Positions 4,504 through 56,136 of a DNA stretch of 64,000 nt are shown here, one piece after another. The notes under the pieces are model-generated. The model did no database searches. It was not told the origin of the DNA and was given only the letters and a program-made list of their open reading frames with translations. This stretch comes from a virus: the IMG/VR virus record IMGVR_UViG_3300027747_004524, positions 32,001 to 96,000 of that record. One strand, given 5' to 3'. The first letter of the stretch is position 1. Each line of letters begins with the position of its first letter. Position numbers and translations under genes: made by a program.

Positions 4504-5061
4504 ATGGGCGACATGATGGACGATATTAACAAGTTTGCTAAAATATGGGATAATGCTGTACAAAAAGGCATCTTCAATGCCCCTTCATTGCCTGCTAACA
4601 CAGAAGCAGAAAGAGAAGAAGAGACCGACAGAGGTACAGACTTTTTTGGTCAATATCTAGCAGACGATTACGACAGAGATAAGCCTTTAAATGAAGTTGA
4701 TACCAAATATTGGGCCATACTTTCTAGAAAAGCAGACCCGTTGAGTGAAGAGAATAATCCTTTAAAGACCGTTGTTAACGCCATAGGTACTTCTCAAAAC
4801 CCAGTATATCCTAATTCTGTAGGAAAGGACCAGGATTTAAACGTAACTCCAAACTGGGGGTCTGGCGGCAAAGAGATAGAAGAGCTAGAGAAACTAAAAG
4901 TAGAACTACATGAACTTGAATCAAAATTGAATTCTTTAGTTTCTAAAGATCAAGATTCAAAGGTTGAAGGGGTTCAATCCAAGATAGATTCCTTAAAAAA
5001 TGAAATAGACAAATTGAGTGATTCACTAGCGGGCAACAGGTTTGATCCTAAATCTGCTTAG
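4504..5061 (+). CDS. Hypothetical protein with C-terminal coiled coil
   Basis: GGAGG RBS; heptad-rich C-terminus. Confidence 0.8.
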   Translation: MGDMMDDINKFAKIWDNAVQKGIFNAPSLPANTEAEREEETDRGTDFFGQYLADDYDRDKPLNEVDTKYWAILSRKADPLSEENNPLKTVVNAIGTSQNPVYPNSVGKDQDLNVTPNWGSGGKEIEELEKLKVELHELESKLNSLVSKDQDSKVEGVQSKIDSLKNEIDKLSDSLAGNRFDPKSA

Positions 5062-30044: not shown

Positions 30045-30304
30045 TGTTTTATTTATTTGGCTGGATTTTGTTCGGTCTTTTAGTAGGGATCGTTGCAAAA
30101 TACATACATCCTGGAAAGGACCCTGTTGGGATTATCCCTTCTTTGATAGGTGGCGTGGTCGGCTCCTTTGTAGGAGGTTTAGTCAACTATACGCTGTACG
30201 GAACTTTATCGGACTTTAGACCCGCAGGTCTTTTTATGTCTGTTATTGGAGCTGTTGTGTTTTTTGCTTTTCTTCGTTGGTATTCTTCAAAAAATGTTAA
30301 CTAA
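30044..30304 (+). CDS. GlsB/YeaQ/YmgE transglycosylase-associated membrane protein
   Basis: WILFGLLVGIVAKYIHPGKDPVG..GVVGSFVGG. Confidence 0.85.
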   Translation: MFYLFGWILFGLLVGIVAKYIHPGKDPVGIIPSLIGGVVGSFVGGLVNYTLYGTLSDFRPAGLFMSVIGAVVFFAFLRWYSSKNVN

Positions 30305-30506
30305 AGACTTAGTAGAAAGCCTTCGACAAAGATATGATGTGCACCCTTTAGTTTTTAATCGGTGTGTAGGCCGAGCAAAGAACGACGCAGAGCTTTTTGA
30401 CATGCTCGACTCATTTCCTAAGAAGTTTCCAATAGTTTGGTCTGAAGAGGAATACAGGTGGATTACCACAAACGATCCTTACTTATTCCAAGATTTTGAT
30501 CTATGA
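30294..30506 (+). CDS. Hypothetical protein
   Basis: Operon packing. Confidence 0.65.
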   Translation: MLTKDLVESLRQRYDVHPLVFNRCVGRAKNDAELFDMLDSFPKKFPIVWSEEEYRWITTNDPYLFQDFDL

Positions 30507-31099
30507 ATGTTTTTGAAGAGTACGCATCTCGTAAAAAAATAAGCTATCCAATAGCTTATCATACTTCCTCATCTTTGATTATTTTTGAATCAGACAAAAG
30601 AAAATGGAACGCAAAATTGTGTGTTTTGACTGTGGTGTGGAATTCTAATCCGCATCATCCTGGAATGTACAAAATTTGCTTAAGGTCACCTTATAACAAC
30701 GTTATTCCGCAAAATCTTTTACACTTAGACAAGACTCATTTTTTTGTTGAAAAATCTTGGTTTGAATATGAGGAATTCTTTTACAAATGGAAACCTAGTT
30801 TAGAAGGGTTGCGTCCTGTTTATGATAGTGAATCTTTATTATCTGCGTGGGAAATTTTTGTTTCTGTAAATGAATGTTTGTTTTTAAACCAATCAACCTT
30901 TGTAAAGAAAAAGCTTTTTGAAACTTTAGACCCCACCGCAACCCCCTCAGAAAGGCTTGCCTCTCTTTCTGAATTGACTTCCTCTTCTTCTTTTGACCAT
31001 ATGCTTGGTGCGTGGAAAAAAGGTTTTCTTGCTCCTATTGAAGAAGATTACATGAATTGGTATAAAAAGTTTATTGGGCTTTATCATGAAGAGTTTTGA
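30503..31099 (+). CDS. Hypothetical protein
   Basis: 198-aa ORF, ATGA overlap. Confidence 0.7.
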   Translation: MNVFEEYASRKKISYPIAYHTSSSLIIFESDKRKWNAKLCVLTVVWNSNPHHPGMYKICLRSPYNNVIPQNLLHLDKTHFFVEKSWFEYEEFFYKWKPSLEGLRPVYDSESLLSAWEIFVSVNECLFLNQSTFVKKKLFETLDPTATPSERLASLSELTSSSSFDHMLGAWKKGFLAPIEEDYMNWYKKFIGLYHEEF

Positions 31100-31379: not shown

Positions 31380-32419
31380 AAAGAGTGCTATTAACAGGGG
31401 CCAGCGGCTTTATAGGAACACATTGCTTAAAGTATTTTATTGAAAATACCGACTGGTTTGTTGTGGCAATAGACTCTTTTCGTCACAAAGGCACTTACTC
31501 CAGGCTTTCCGAAATTGATATTCCAAAAGACAGGGTTTGCATCTTAAATCATGATTTGTCGGTTCCACTAGATGAGGTTCTAGAAAACAAGATTTTAGCA
31601 AGATCCATCGATCCATCTGGTTTGGTGCTAAGCTCTAAAATAGATTACGTTATAAACATGGCATCAGATTCTGCCGTGGAAAGATCTGTTTTAAATCCTG
31701 GTTCTTGTTGGTCCAATAACTGCAACTTAATTTTTAACGTTCTTGAATTTGCAAGAAAAGTTAAACCTAAGGTTTTTTTTCAAGTTTCTACTGATGAGGT
31801 TTATGGAGATTGCCCTCCCAATAGCTCTCATTTTGAGTGGGACACTATAATTCCTTCCAATCCATATTCTGCGTCCAAAGCAGCACAGGAAGCTCTTGCT
31901 ATATCTTACTGGCGTACATACGGTGTTCCTGTTGTTATTACCAACACGATGAATACAATAGGCGAATGGCAAGACAAAGAAAAGTTTTTGCCTAAAATTA
32001 TATGGAAAGTTGCAACAAACCAAGAAATGGAAATCTACGGCGAAAAGAATCAGTCAGGACATTACGAAACAGGTACTAGGTTCTACTTGCACGCTCAAAA
32101 CCATGCTGACGTTTTTGTTTGGTTGGCAGACAAGCCGCTTTCCTCTTATGAAGACGGAGACCCATTGCCAGATAGATATAACGTTGTTGGCGATGTTGAA
32201 TTAAGCAACCTTGATATGGCGGAGCTTGTTTCTGAAATTATGGGAAAGAAGCTTAAATACCGTATAGTTTCTTCTGAGTCTGTTAGAAAGGGCTACGATA
32301 AGCGATATGCCCTTGATGGATCAAAACTCAGGGAAATGGGCTGGACTGCTCCTGTGCCCTTTCTAAGGGGCTTAGAGAGGATCGTTAGATGGACTTTAGA
32401 TAACCCTTGGTGGGTTTAA
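31376..32419 (+). CDS. rmlB: dTDP-glucose 4,6-dehydratase-like NAD-dependent epimerase/dehydratase
   Basis: TGASGFIG, STDEVYG, NPYSASKAA, GYDKRYALD. Confidence 0.85.
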   Translation: MKRVLLTGASGFIGTHCLKYFIENTDWFVVAIDSFRHKGTYSRLSEIDIPKDRVCILNHDLSVPLDEVLENKILARSIDPSGLVLSSKIDYVINMASDSAVERSVLNPGSCWSNNCNLIFNVLEFARKVKPKVFFQVSTDEVYGDCPPNSSHFEWDTIIPSNPYSASKAAQEALAISYWRTYGVPVVITNTMNTIGEWQDKEKFLPKIIWKVATNQEMEIYGEKNQSGHYETGTRFYLHAQNHADVFVWLADKPLSSYEDGDPLPDRYNVVGDVELSNLDMAELVSEIMGKKLKYRIVSSESVRKGYDKRYALDGSKLREMGWTAPVPFLRGLERIVRWTLDNPWWV

Positions 32420-53156: not shown

Positions 53157-53724
53157 ATTTGTTGTTTTTAGTGCTTTCCATTAGATCTTTTACATTGTCT
53201 TTACAGAAGCCATGCTTGCCTCTTTCAATGAATTCATAGATAACACCTGTTAGTTGACTTGGCTTTGTAAAAACTTGTGTTAATCCTGGACATGTTAGTG
53301 GTTTATTTGAGGAGAACTCTGCATAACCCTTTGTTCGCCATTCTTCCATCGTCTTCTCTACACTTTCTACCTGATATGCTATATGATGAACTCCTCCTAC
53401 ATTGTCTCTTCTAGCAACCCACTGTCCTACTATAGATTCTGGGTCACCGTCTGATACGAATATTTCAGGAGGTAAGTGATATTCGGCAAACTTTGTCTCA
53501 TCAATATCTCTGTTTGTGTTTGGTCCCACGTATTGTCTTATTAGCCAATGTAATTCATCAACTACTGGCTTTTCTGGTGGTTCTAGTGCTATGCACTTAG
53601 CACAAGTTCCATCTGCAAAGTTAATGTCGAATTCTGTTTGAATTCTATAGCCCAATGCATCAATGAAGAATTGGGCTGTTTTTTTTCTATCCAAGGCTCT
53701 ATATGCAATGTGGTCTAGCCTCAT
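53155..53724 (-). CDS. VOC/glyoxalase-fold protein (HPPD/MCE-like)
   Basis: LDHIAY, GVHHIAYQV, GVIYEFIER. Confidence 0.8.
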   Translation of the reverse strand: MRLDHIAYRALDRKKTAQFFIDALGYRIQTEFDINFADGTCAKCIALEPPEKPVVDELHWLIRQYVGPNTNRDIDETKFAEYHLPPEIFVSDGDPESIVGQWVARRDNVGGVHHIAYQVESVEKTMEEWRTKGYAEFSSNKPLTCPGLTQVFTKPSQLTGVIYEFIERGKHGFCKDNVKDLMESTKNNK

Positions 53725-53776
53725 GTTATTATCCCCTTTTTATAGTTAACCTTCAACTATAAAATAGTATTTTCTA

Positions 53777-54298
53777 TCAATTATCCAACGACCAATGCAT
53801 AAAAAGTTTGGTCGTCCACTGGTCAGGCAAACACACCAAATCATCCCGCCAATGTTCCATAGTGCGGCCCAGCATCATGGCACCATCACCATCTTCAACA
53901 TTAAGAACAACTGTATTCCCCTTTTTGTCTATGCAATAAAGAGGCCATTCGTTTGTTAATGTAGACTTTAATGATATTGATAGGGTGTAATCTAACCCAA
54001 CCCTATCGACATGTTTTTTTAATCGCCCGCCGTTGTAGTAAATTCTTCCGTAAGTATTAGCAGGCTTTATTTTTATTTGAAGCTTTTTTGCTATTTGTGG
54101 TGTTAAGGCTCTTAAATATTGTTCAAACTCCGGGCAGTTTCCTCCATATGATTCTCCGTAGTGATCGGAGGCACCGCTCTCATGCTTCAGCATGTTTTCA
54201 TTCTTCATCCGAAAAAGAATGTCCGTAAAATGCTGACAGATAGAAGGAGGTAATATGCCTTTTACATAAACGTAACCAAGATCGCTAAAGTGCTGCAT
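53777..54298 (-). CDS. 2OG-Fe(II) oxygenase
   Basis: NTYGRIY, KHVDR, DGDG, EHWRD, LFMHW. Confidence 0.8.
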   Translation of the reverse strand: MQHFSDLGYVYVKGILPPSICQHFTDILFRMKNENMLKHESGASDHYGESYGGNCPEFEQYLRALTPQIAKKLQIKIKPANTYGRIYYNGGRLKKHVDRVGLDYTLSISLKSTLTNEWPLYCIDKKGNTVVLNVEDGDGAMMLGRTMEHWRDDLVCLPDQWTTKLFMHWSLDN

Positions 54299-54320
54299 GT
54301 TGGTCTCATGATAAATTAAA

Positions 54321-54366
54321 TGGGACGTGAGGGAATCGAACCCCCGACCAAAAGATATGAGTCTGT
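54321..54366 (-). pseudogene. Relic 3' half of an intron-less CAU tRNA
   Basis: ACAGA-CTCATA-TCTTT-TGGTC-GGGGG-TTCGATT-CCCTC-ACGTCCC-A; no D arm on this strand. Confidence 0.7.
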
Positions 54367-54423
54367 CTCACAGTTTCTCCTTTTGGCGTCCACAACATTA
54401 TATGCAAAAATCTTTTTTTTTCA

Positions 54424-54440
54424 ACGTAGCTCAGTTGGTT
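54424..54440 (+). pseudogene. Inverted tRNA 5'/D-arm fragment
   Basis: ACGTAGCTCAGTTGGTT; its ACGT matches the relic acceptor. Confidence 0.5.
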
Positions 54441-54474
54441 ATTATTTTTTGATTAGACCATACTATATAAAAGT

Positions 54475-55041
54475 ATGGAATACGATAAGTTAAAGGGTTA
54501 TCTTGATAAGAACATGACTCTAAGGCAAATTTCAATCGAAAGCAAAAAATGTCTTGCTTCTGTTCGTTATTGGATGAAAAAACATGGGTTTAAACCTAAT
54601 TTTGCGAACTTTAAGGGAGGCTATAAACCTGGTCAAAAAATAATTGGCAATGACAGATATTGTCCTTCTTGCAAAGTTTATAGAAACATAAACGATTTTT
54701 ACTCAAGAAGGAAAACTAACTGCACGGGCTACTGTAAGACTTGTATATCTAAAAAGACTACTGAACGACAAAGAAAAATTAAGAAGGAGATGGTCGAATA
54801 CAAAGGGGGCAAATGTCAAAACCCGAAGTGCTCCACGCCAGGAGGATATAGTCGTTCAATAAATGGTTTGGACTTTCATCATATAGATCCTTTGAAAAAA
54901 GAATTTAGTATTTCTCAAATAAGGCTTACTAAGATGAACAAAAAAATTAAAAAAGAGTTGGATAAATGTATTTTGCTTTGTGCCAACTGCCATAGAGAAA
55001 GACATGAAGAGCTGCTTCTTGAAAGAAAAAAAAGCACCTGA
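54475..55041 (+). CDS. Free-standing HNH homing-endonuclease-like protein
   Basis: N-terminal HTH-like region, CPSC..YCKTC, KGGKCQ, LDFHHIDP, LLCANCHRERH. Confidence 0.88.
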   Translation: MEYDKLKGYLDKNMTLRQISIESKKCLASVRYWMKKHGFKPNFANFKGGYKPGQKIIGNDRYCPSCKVYRNINDFYSRRKTNCTGYCKTCISKKTTERQRKIKKEMVEYKGGKCQNPKCSTPGGYSRSINGLDFHHIDPLKKEFSISQIRLTKMNKKIKKELDKCILLCANCHRERHEELLLERKKST

Positions 55042-55047
55042 AAACAG

Positions 55048-55332
55048 TCCGAGAGGTGGGGCACGATCCCACAACCCACAGATTATGCAATCCACTTCGG
55101 CTTTCGCCGCCAGAACTTCTTCTGTTCGTGGTCTGGACTATGCCTTCACCTTTGTTGTTGCCAACTTTAGGTGGGTGATTATAGTCTCTACACGTTCCCT
55201 TTCGGGCTTCGCTCGGCGTTGGGTCGTCCTTTTGAGACAGGCCGTTCACCGAATTTACACCTGACTAACCACCCGTTTCCAGATGGCCGACCCGTAAAAG
55301 TCTGTTGCTCTAACCAATTGAGCTACTCTCGG
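55048..55332 (-). tRNA. tRNA(CAU), probably Ile2, split by a group I intron (exons 55332-55299 and 55087-55048)
   Basis: CCGAGAG/CTCTCGG acceptor, GCTC/GAGC D stem, ACAGA-CT^CATAA-TCTGT anticodon arm. Confidence 0.9.
55088..55298 (-). ncRNA. Compact group I intron (211 nt), no internal ORF
   Basis: 5' U.G P1 (GACU/GGUC), AAAUUCGGUGAA, AACGCCGAGC, GUAGAGACUA, AAGGCAUAGUCC core elements, GAAA L2/L9 loops, terminal G. Confidence 0.9.
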
Positions 55333-55339
55333 AATGTTT

Positions 55340-55999
55340 TCAGACGCTCTTTTGTGTGATCACCTCTTCAACCAATGACTCAATTTTTTTCTTTGCAAAC
55401 TTTTCCAAAGACAGTTCGTTTTTTGCCATCTCTGGAATTATTCTTTGACGAACCCAATTTCTTCTGCTGCCCTTGACTGCAGAGTTGGTTTCGTCCTCTA
55501 CAATATAATGCTTTAATTTGTTTCTGTCAACGTACTGTTGAAAATCTTTTTTCTTCGTTAGAAGAAATGGGTGCACAACCTTATAGTTTGGAAATAGACT
55601 CCACAAGGGAATTGGTTCGTGATCTGGTTTCCCCCTGAAACAGTTCAGAAGGTAGCTTTCAATCCAATCGTTTAAGTGGTGGGCCGTTATTAGAATTCCT
55701 TCTTCCTCTTTGAAAATAGTAGAATAGAATTCAACTCTAGCTCTTCTGCATTCTGATTCTGTGTTTAGATTATTGCCATATCCACAAATTCCTTTTATGT
55801 GAAATTCTTCGCAAAACTTTTGGAAATTTTTTTCCATTTCATCGTTTTGTTCTCTGATTTTGTGGTTAAAGTGTACTCCAACAACCTTGTATCCTTTCCA
55901 CATTAACCAATGCAAAGATGCTAAACTGTCTACTCCCATAGAAACTGTAACGTAAACAGTTTTTTCTTTGTTGAGTAATTGCTTTATGATCTTTATCAT
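55340..55999 (-). CDS. tilS: tRNA(Ile)-lysidine synthase, catalytic domain only
   Basis: SMGVDS PP-loop, HFNH, RRAR, TAHHLND..ES, HPFL, DETN, RNWVR. Confidence 0.88.
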   Translation of the reverse strand: MIKIIKQLLNKEKTVYVTVSMGVDSLASLHWLMWKGYKVVGVHFNHKIREQNDEMEKNFQKFCEEFHIKGICGYGNNLNTESECRRARVEFYSTIFKEEEGILITAHHLNDWIESYLLNCFRGKPDHEPIPLWSLFPNYKVVHPFLLTKKKDFQQYVDRNKLKHYIVEDETNSAVKGSRRNWVRQRIIPEMAKNELSLEKFAKKKIESLVEEVITQKSV

Positions 56000-56136
56000 G
56001 TTCCTATTTCCGAATTTTGAATTTGCCTAATTTCTTTTTGGGCAAGGCTTTACATCTTGAAACCTACGTGTTATCATTAGGTTGTGTAGGCTAAGTATGG
56101 GCTTAACAAGTACAAAATTTAGAATAGGAGATCTAA

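Follow-up and report, generated by a model that had tools for sequence, protein, structure and literature searches.

A polymorphic cassette of a free-standing HNH endonuclease gene and an intron-split tRNA(CAU) gene in a large freshwater phage: candidate collaborative homing in a tRNA gene

Overview of the locus

A free-standing HNH endonuclease gene and a tRNA(CAU) gene split by a group I intron form a polymorphic cassette of ~1.0 kb (about 54365..55380) in a 64,000-nt stretch of viral DNA, positions 32,001 to 96,000 of IMG/VR record IMGVR_UViG_3300027747_004524. This whole stretch is referred to below as the window, and all coordinates are those of the window unless stated otherwise. The record is 122.9 kb long with an estimated completeness of 25%, implying a genome of several hundred kb, and the best relative in the database comes from an uncultured phage of 595 kb. 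The window itself belongs to a large (huge) freshwater phage. The cassette is described here as a candidate for collaborative homing, the proposed route by which an intron without an open reading frame (ORF) and a free-standing nuclease become a composite mobile intron.

The cassette consists of a leader, the HNH gene, the intron-containing tRNA gene (tRNA-A), and the tail of a TilS gene. The HNH gene (54475..55041, plus strand, 188 aa) converges with tRNA-A (55048..55332, minus strand; 5' exon 55332-55299, 3' exon 55087-55048). The TGA stop codon of HNH (55039-55041) and the discriminator A at the tRNA 3' end (55048) are only 6 nt apart (55042-55047), as a preliminary description of the locus had given them with every coordinate correct. 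This adjacency is not due to chance, because 60 of 80 IMG/VR loci with homologues of the HNH have a tRNA within 100 nt (68 of 80 within 300 nt). The intron (55088..55298, minus strand) lies between U33 and C34. No ORF is confined to it, and at 211 nt it is too short to hold a nuclease gene. On the other side of tRNA-A is a gene for a TilS catalytic domain (55340..55999, minus strand, 219 aa).

The left junction of the cassette falls within a resident tRNA gene (tRNA-B), between positions 28 and 29 in the anticodon stem and 5 nt from the intron site, and its right junction is at 55381, 13 codons ahead of the TilS stop, so that the last 13 codons of TilS (55380-55340) are inside the cassette. 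The leader upstream of the HNH gene has a D-arm-like tRNA fragment, ACGTAGCTCAGTTGGTTA (54424..54441, plus strand), which is inverted relative to the remnant of tRNA-B and aligns weakly to tRNA-B positions 4-22.

Occupied and empty alleles

What is left of tRNA-B, an intron-less tRNA(CAU) gene, lies at 54316..54364 on the minus strand. Read from 54364 to 54316, this remnant is identical at 49 of 50 nt (98%; E 6e-19) to positions 29-76 of the intact, intron-less, TilS-linked tRNA(CAU) of L045, one of the related loci fetched for comparison and designated by L numbers. It covers tRNA-B positions 29 to about 73 plus 5 nt downstream; the first 28 nt are gone. No second remnant of tRNA-B and no second copy of the leader was found in the other fetched loci or elsewhere in the 122-kb record.

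The undisturbed locus was seen in X2, another metagenome run that belongs to a different study from the window's probable source sample, and whose public contigs were placed on positions 53700-56100. The X2 contigs form a bubble. Its flanks, >99% identical, are two contigs: one of 3.9 kb (22.7x), whose end is at 54356, and one of 24 kb (24x), whose start is at 55381. The full branch is a 1076-nt contig (11.6x) with a structure identical to that of the window. The empty branch is an 87-nt contig (7.5x) that joins 54356 to 55381, skipping 1024 nt and holding 36 other letters in their place. In reverse complement, these 36 letters are precisely the 5' part that the tRNA-B remnant lacks, in the form seen in L045. 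The empty branch is therefore TilS followed by an intact intron-less tRNA(CAU), without tRNA-A, intron or HNH. This reading agrees with where the contigs end, with their depths, and with the exact match of the 36 letters. A further joint in X2, 54349 to 55304 (2.3x), was rejected as an allele; it belongs to an unrelated tRNA-Val-like gene. The remnant in the window has a 1-nt deletion in A37/A38 and the X2 full form has an extra base behind 54355, so the deletion must be a later decay.

Thus, the cassette replaced the first 28 nt of a resident intron-less, TilS-linked tRNA(CAU) gene, and cassette-bearing and cassette-free genomes coexist in nature, which is what joint spread of a nuclease and an intron would lead one to expect. 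The HNH and the intron-tRNA travel together. The co-occurrence of the two across related genomes, which the preliminary description had named as a check, came out as both or neither in the X2 branches and in four genomes syntenic for TilS, a small sample of 2 versus 2. L045 and L047 have an intron-less tRNA(CAU) directly after TilS and no HNH. L043/L044, whose TilS is 58% identical (aa), have the same intron-tRNA with an HNH gene of a different family, again convergent and abutting. The L043 HNH matches Pfam HNH_4/HNH/HNH_5 and has a helix-turn-helix (HTH) module, and BLASTP against the window HNH gives only E 0.34. tRNA-A and its L043 counterpart share 92.8% identity along 292 nt, and the differences in the anticodon stem are compensatory. 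At 94.3% identity the intron is better conserved than the exons (88%) and than TilS.

The remnant may not be silent. A sigma-70-like promoter sequence (TTGAAA, 16 nt, TATAAT; 11 of 12 consensus positions) lies at 54397-54424 on the minus strand, just upstream of the remnant, and in the new 5' sequence a GGACG can pair with the CGUCC that the old acceptor strand has kept. Transcription of the remnant into a tRNA-like RNA is conceivable, but these features could also have arisen by chance in AT-rich DNA (8 promoter sites found versus 4.4 expected). A 30-mer spanning the anticodon, variable, and T-stem parts of tRNA-B had a single match in 185,579 species genomes, in a Planctomycetaceae metagenome-assembled genome (CAZIAZ010000016.1; L144, 6807-6882). 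It was rejected as an indicator of the host: the match is in a bacterial tRNA(CAU) gene whose acceptor stem differs and which lacks synteny, at best a weak hint.

The group I intron and its tRNA

Judged from its sequence, the insertion in tRNA-A is a group I intron, an IC3-like tRNA intron, and is predicted to be self-splicing. Rfam RF00028 matches 55292-55111 with 26.2 bits (E 6.9e-5; gathering score 50) in a narrow 321-nt search only; a search over 3 kb around the locus gave no intron match. A family-specific nhmmer profile recognizes the intron with an E value of 2.9e-27. An alignment of ten introns, this one and nine phage and bacterial tRNA introns, predicts 41 pairs, 24 of them with compensatory changes, and the covariation backs the core helices P3-P9. 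The P7 pseudoknot was assessed by eye only (GACTAT/ATAGTC here vs GAGCA/TGCTC in L017).

Both splice sites are defined. The P1 helix is formed by GACU (55302-55299) with GGUC (55292-55289), the pairs being U55299.G55292, C55300-G55291, A55301-U55290 and G55302-C55289. In the alignment the last exon base is always U, facing a conserved G directly 5' of P2, and the guide positions covary with the exon (A-U here, C-G in L048/L049, U-A in L017, C-G in L008). The terminal intron base is G55088, the omega-G, invariant in all ten introns. With the splice sites fixed at U33 (55299) and G55088, the spliced loop is CU-CAU-AA and the anticodon CAU. The sequence G|CATAA is kept in L043. The preliminary description had called this an ORF-less 211-nt group I intron in a CAU tRNA, and both parts are upheld: the intron by the Rfam match and the covarying pairs, and the anticodon by P1, the terminal G and conservation in L043.

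Standard tRNA finders miss or misread genes such as tRNA-A. By default ARAGORN missed it, and with introns allowed it reported tRNA-Lys(UUU) with a 211-nt intron. This reading was rejected: it follows from a fixed 37/38 intron convention, the intron would end in U, and the L043 gene would read "UUA stop". In BLAST the 5' exon resembles phage tRNA-Lys genes, a generic similarity of the D arm and the anticodon stem. The T loop of tRNA-A (55056-55072, minus strand) reads AUCGUGC, with A54/U58 instead of U54/A58, which looks like a reciprocal swap. The L043 gene, otherwise 93% identical, has the normal T loop UUCGAGU, and the X2 copy agrees with the window at the swapped positions.

The neighboring TilS gene (55999-55340) scores 101.1 bits with TIGR02432 (cut-off 93.6) and E 6.7e-27 with Pfam PP-loop. 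Since tRNA-A starts 7 nt past the TilS stop on the same strand, it is probably tRNA-Ile2(CAU), the partner of TilS. The linkage of TilS to a CAU tRNA is kept in L043, L045 and L047. The TilS frame itself varies at its end. In the empty X2 allele a tail of its own is missing and the frame would continue into the tRNA-B gene. The TilS ORF of L047 likewise overlaps the tRNA start, and the cassette gives TilS a different 13-codon C-terminus, similar to that of L043.

The HNH endonuclease

The HNH ORF is intact and matches PHROG 2255 "HNH endonuclease" with E 2.5e-27; with Pfam HNH (PF01844) it scores 17.7 bits, short of the gathering cut-off of 21.4. The family is large, with 2170 homologues at E<=1e-5, the closest 87% identical and the ten closest spanning 71-87%. 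H135, H136, N171, H173, H177, C114, C169 and C172, which make up the catalytic motif and the CxxC zinc ligands, are invariant in 19 HNH sequences. An AlphaFold model (pLDDT, the predicted local distance difference test, 85.9) has strands at 132-136 and 165-169 and a helix at 170-187. Three modules are predicted from the model: three HTH-like helices at the N-terminus, then a sheet of zinc-ribbon type together with a long helix, and at the C-terminus a beta-beta-alpha-Me HNH domain. Foldseek matches were weak (Hpy99I, Gme HNH, T4 EndoVII, Cap5 and the Cas9 HNH domain, none with E<=0.001), and neither sequence nor fold searches of the PDB gave a significant match to the whole protein. Single-protein scans of viral contigs for the HNH gave only a partial match, L004, with no tRNA nearby. 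The family may be a source of nucleases with long, tRNA-gene-specific recognition sites.

Related loci

Among the 80 IMG/VR loci, the most frequent neighbor of the HNH is tRNA-Arg(UCU). In several homologues the C-terminal tail is an antisense read-through of a tRNA T-arm. The two best full-length IMG/VR relatives of the HNH, L048 and L049 (45-47% identity), abut a tRNA-Arg(UCU) that is split at U33|U34 by an intron of this family, 206 or 209 nt long. These two loci have only the HNH and the intron-tRNA-Arg(UCU) in common, the flanks being unrelated also when translated. Neither module has an exon remnant next to it. In L031 a member of the HNH family (E 2e-14) is inside a U33|C34 CAU-tRNA intron, in antisense orientation, with the 5' splice site on one side of it and the guide sequence on the other. 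The same range of arrangements is seen with a third HNH family, which is intron-encoded in the tRNA-Leu(UAA) of LR756511 and free-standing beside ORF-less tRNA-Leu introns in L010, L027 and L030. The U33|N34 site recurs in CAU tRNAs (L014/L015, L031, L043), Arg-UCU (L048, L049) and Leu-UAA (L030, L032).

A 20-nt element from the 3' part of the intron was met in 36 IMG/VR loci, mostly tRNA genes, with introns at varied positions of the anticodon loop. The conserved 3' module, GTCCAGACCACGAAC ... GGCGGCGAAAGCCGAAGTGG, is the hallmark of a large group I intron family of viral contigs (L008-L043). The tRNAs that house its members were read as Leu-UAA, Arg-CCU, Arg-UCU, CAU and others, and each has a T ahead of the 5' junction, as inferred or as set by ARAGORN. 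At least five loci (L012, L016, L023, L034 and L038) appear to carry the module in protein-coding DNA. The tRNA-Leu(UAA) intron of LR756511.1 (L005; 406725-411822, at about 1870-2660), a 595-kb uncultured phage, is at the classical U34|A35 site. It encloses a 189-aa HNH ORF, and its 3' third is 75% identical to the intron of the window.

Some candidates fell away or remained marginal. In L069 and L100, ARAGORN placed long "introns" across the HNH that do not belong to group I. In L100 (2365-2955) it is apparently an HNH gene of this family that splits the tRNA. A ribozyme core is lacking there and the next gene is an intact tRNA-His(GUG), so that a resident tRNA may here too have been destroyed beside its replacement. 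Outside the window, the record has a weak second RF00028 match at record positions 4876-5057 (12.1 bits, E 0.1) and, at 30299-30616, a low-stringency ARAGORN tRNA-Thr(CGU) with a 228-nt intron; the intron-family profile matched neither.

A model for homing of the cassette and its alternatives

We lean toward reading the locus as collaborative homing in a tRNA gene, by a mobile ~1-kb cassette of the HNH and an intron-split tRNA(CAU), though with modest confidence. The HNH would break a tRNA(CAU) gene that has no intron, either within the anticodon arm or slightly 5' of it. A genome with the cassette would then serve as the template for repair, through homology to TilS at one end and to the 3' part of the tRNA at the other, and the HNH and the replacement tRNA would be copied in. 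The carrier would be immune in two ways: its resident target is truncated, and the replacement tRNA, target-like once its exons are joined, is interrupted at U33|C34 by the intron. Around the anticodon arm the joined exons of tRNA-A share 13 identical nt, AGACTCATAATCT, with tRNA-B, and by this resemblance the intron would be the obvious protection of tRNA-A from cutting. Splicing would restore a working tRNA(CAU) for the phage TilS, making the cassette cheap for the phage. The carrier keeps the T-arm and the 3' acceptor strand of tRNA-B and, in X2, AGACTCATAATCT, so the recognition site would have to reach 5' of position 29.

Part of this had been put forward in the preliminary description, and part of it stands. 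HNH and intron are jointly present or jointly absent in X2 and in the TilS relatives, the replaced segment ends 5 nt from the intron site, and the family is met again in the CAU intron of L031 and in the L048/L049 modules. The model is further favored by the closeness of the HNH family to tRNA genes, by the similar continuum in the family of LR756511, by the higher conservation of the intron relative to the exons and TilS, and by precedents for collaborative homing and for nucleases directed at tRNA genes (PMC3984707, PMC10448857, PMC2330249). Against an obligatory link between nuclease and intron, five of the seven convergent tRNA-Arg(UCU) neighbors of the family have no intron.

This last point belongs to a set of observations that weigh against collaborative homing and are shared in part by its main rival, in which the HNH is an ordinary homing endonuclease of tRNA arrays whose target is either the stretch of tRNA-B that was replaced or the border of TilS and tRNA, and not the site of intron insertion. 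Here the intron would be a passenger, immunity would come from deletion of the target, and two selfish elements would share a hotspot without cooperation. Most of the 80 HNH loci abut intron-less tRNAs, so an intron is not needed to carry such an HNH, and an intron of the family is close by in only 3-4 of the 80. The closest members of the L043 HNH family (HNH-B) likewise abut an intron-less tRNA-Glu, and T4 SegB, a nuclease of a tRNA cluster, targets a T-arm motif without an intron (PMC2330249). Immunity could come wholly from the truncation of tRNA-B. Moreover, because the X2 cassette copy has an intact AGACTCATAATCT in its remnant, a target confined to the anticodon loop would be cut by the carrier's own enzyme. 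The co-occurrence in the TilS-syntenic genomes, two with both and two with neither, is not significant alone, and the X2 joint comes from a single run, from contigs rather than reads, with sides of only 21 and 30 nt. Against the intron as a mere passenger are the joined exons of tRNA-A, which with these 13 shared nt would be a near-cognate target if the intron were absent, and the recurrence of the same HNH family with the U33|N34 intron family in three architectures. We regard the passenger explanation as rather unlikely, but it is the most serious of the rivals.

Two further explanations separate the nuclease from the intron more completely. The intron may have lost an endonuclease of its own, and a free-standing HNH may have come later at a recombination hotspot, with no functional tie. 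Such turnover has been proposed for loci of this kind (PMC10448857), and it would account for the unrelated HNH genes at the same spot in the window phage and in L043 and for the intron-encoded forms in L031 and LR756511. However, the 211-nt intron has no trace of a degraded ORF, and intron and HNH are still one co-inherited block in X2; turnover is also compatible with cooperation at the present day. It is considered improbable. Plain mosaic recombination between diverged co-infecting phages, with an HNH that is inactive or attacks host or competitor DNA, draws on the mosaic nature of phage genomes and on a right junction in the conserved TilS, where ordinary homologous exchange is easy. It fits poorly with a left junction inside the anticodon stem of a tRNA, with catalytic and zinc-binding residues that are all conserved, with a module that recurs in unrelated flanks, and with an HNH family so tightly bound to tRNA genes, and it is very improbable.

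Collaborative homing at this site might extend to a self-contained "destroy-and-replace" element for AUA decoding, a speculative and on present grounds doubtful idea. The HNH would inactivate the intron-less tRNA(CAU) of co-infecting phages, and possibly of the host, and the cassette would install an intron-protected tRNA compatible with the minimal TilS of the phage. If this were true, intron, nuclease and tRNA would be one addictive unit, and the U33|N34 group I introns would be a widespread, overlooked immunity device in phage tRNA arrays.

Comparison with known systems

To our knowledge, collaborative homing is represented by a handful of cases, all in protein-coding genes. It has been established in T7-like phages and a cyanophage (PMC3984707, PMC10448857, PMC6083498). 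As reviewed in two of these sources (PMC3984707, PMC10448857), the cases are the DNA polymerase intron of T3/PhiI with an adjacent free-standing HNH (Bonocora & Shub 2009) and the psbA intron of cyanophage S-PM2 with F-CphI (Zeng et al. 2009). The psbA case had been named as the precedent in the preliminary description. It is apt as collaborative homing, but the parallel of an HNH enzyme fails, the F-CphI family having an Endo VII motif (PMC6083498). As in both cases, an intron-less allele is present in related genomes. Unlike them, the host gene here is a tRNA gene rather than a protein-coding one, the cassette brings an entire substitute gene and cuts the resident one short, and the nuclease gene converges on the tRNA gene and borders its 3' end; cutting at the insertion site is here a proposal.

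The tRNA region of phage T5 has HNH endonucleases. T4 SegB is a GIY-YIG homing endonuclease in the tRNA gene cluster of T4 that recognizes a tRNA-gene motif (PMC2330249). Like the HNH of the window, it is encoded by a free-standing gene amid phage tRNA genes, and its recognition of a tRNA-gene sequence, by which it drives the inheritance of itself and of neighboring tRNA genes, may be counted as a likeness to the cassette. It differs in its nuclease family, in having no intron, and in targeting a T-arm motif. With the T-arm of the resident tRNA retained in the carrier, the target here must lie further 5' than that of SegB. A closer relative by sequence is the ORF45 HNH of Felix O1 (NP_944866), homologous over the zinc ribbon and HNH (about 42% identity) and located between tRNA genes of the Felix O1 cluster; it differs in being only 130 aa long, without the N-terminal HTH module, and has no intron nearby. 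T4 MobE promotes the homing in trans of the nrdB intron with its defunct I-TevIII (PMC2790892). It may be regarded as a parallel, a free-standing HNH that mobilizes a neighboring group I intron unable to move alone, although the nrdB host gene is protein-coding and its intron keeps the defunct ORF. An intron-encoded enzyme with specificity for tRNA-fMet's anticodon region, cited in PMC3984707, is a precedent for a nuclease aimed at the anticodon region of a tRNA(CAU).

The intron itself resembles that of the Azoarcus tRNA, which is also small, of the IC3 type, in the anticodon loop of a CAU tRNA, and has the same conserved core motifs. The Azoarcus intron is inserted after U36. Its 40-nt 3' exon is consistent with this site (PMC13168695). 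In contrast, the intron of the window is at U33|C34, is carried by a phage, has the extra 3' element GTCCAGACCACGAAC...GGCGGCGAAAGCCGAAGTGG, and has its nuclease outside the intron.

A review in 2014 placed all phage introns then known in protein-coding genes, despite the many phage tRNA genes (PMC3984707). Our literature search, incomplete in its coverage and thus weak evidence, brought up no subsequent account of a group I intron in a phage tRNA gene together with a free-standing nuclease. Against the 2014 count of none, the dozens of IMG/VR loci recorded here show group I introns to be common in phage tRNA genes. We would call new the candidate occurrence of collaborative homing in a tRNA gene, with the twist of a replacement gene and with natural empty alleles. 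The locus offers a tRNA-gene case in which occupied and empty alleles are both present in nature. Since related loci have the nuclease outside the intron, inside it, or not at all, the proposed steps toward a composite mobile intron become directly comparable.

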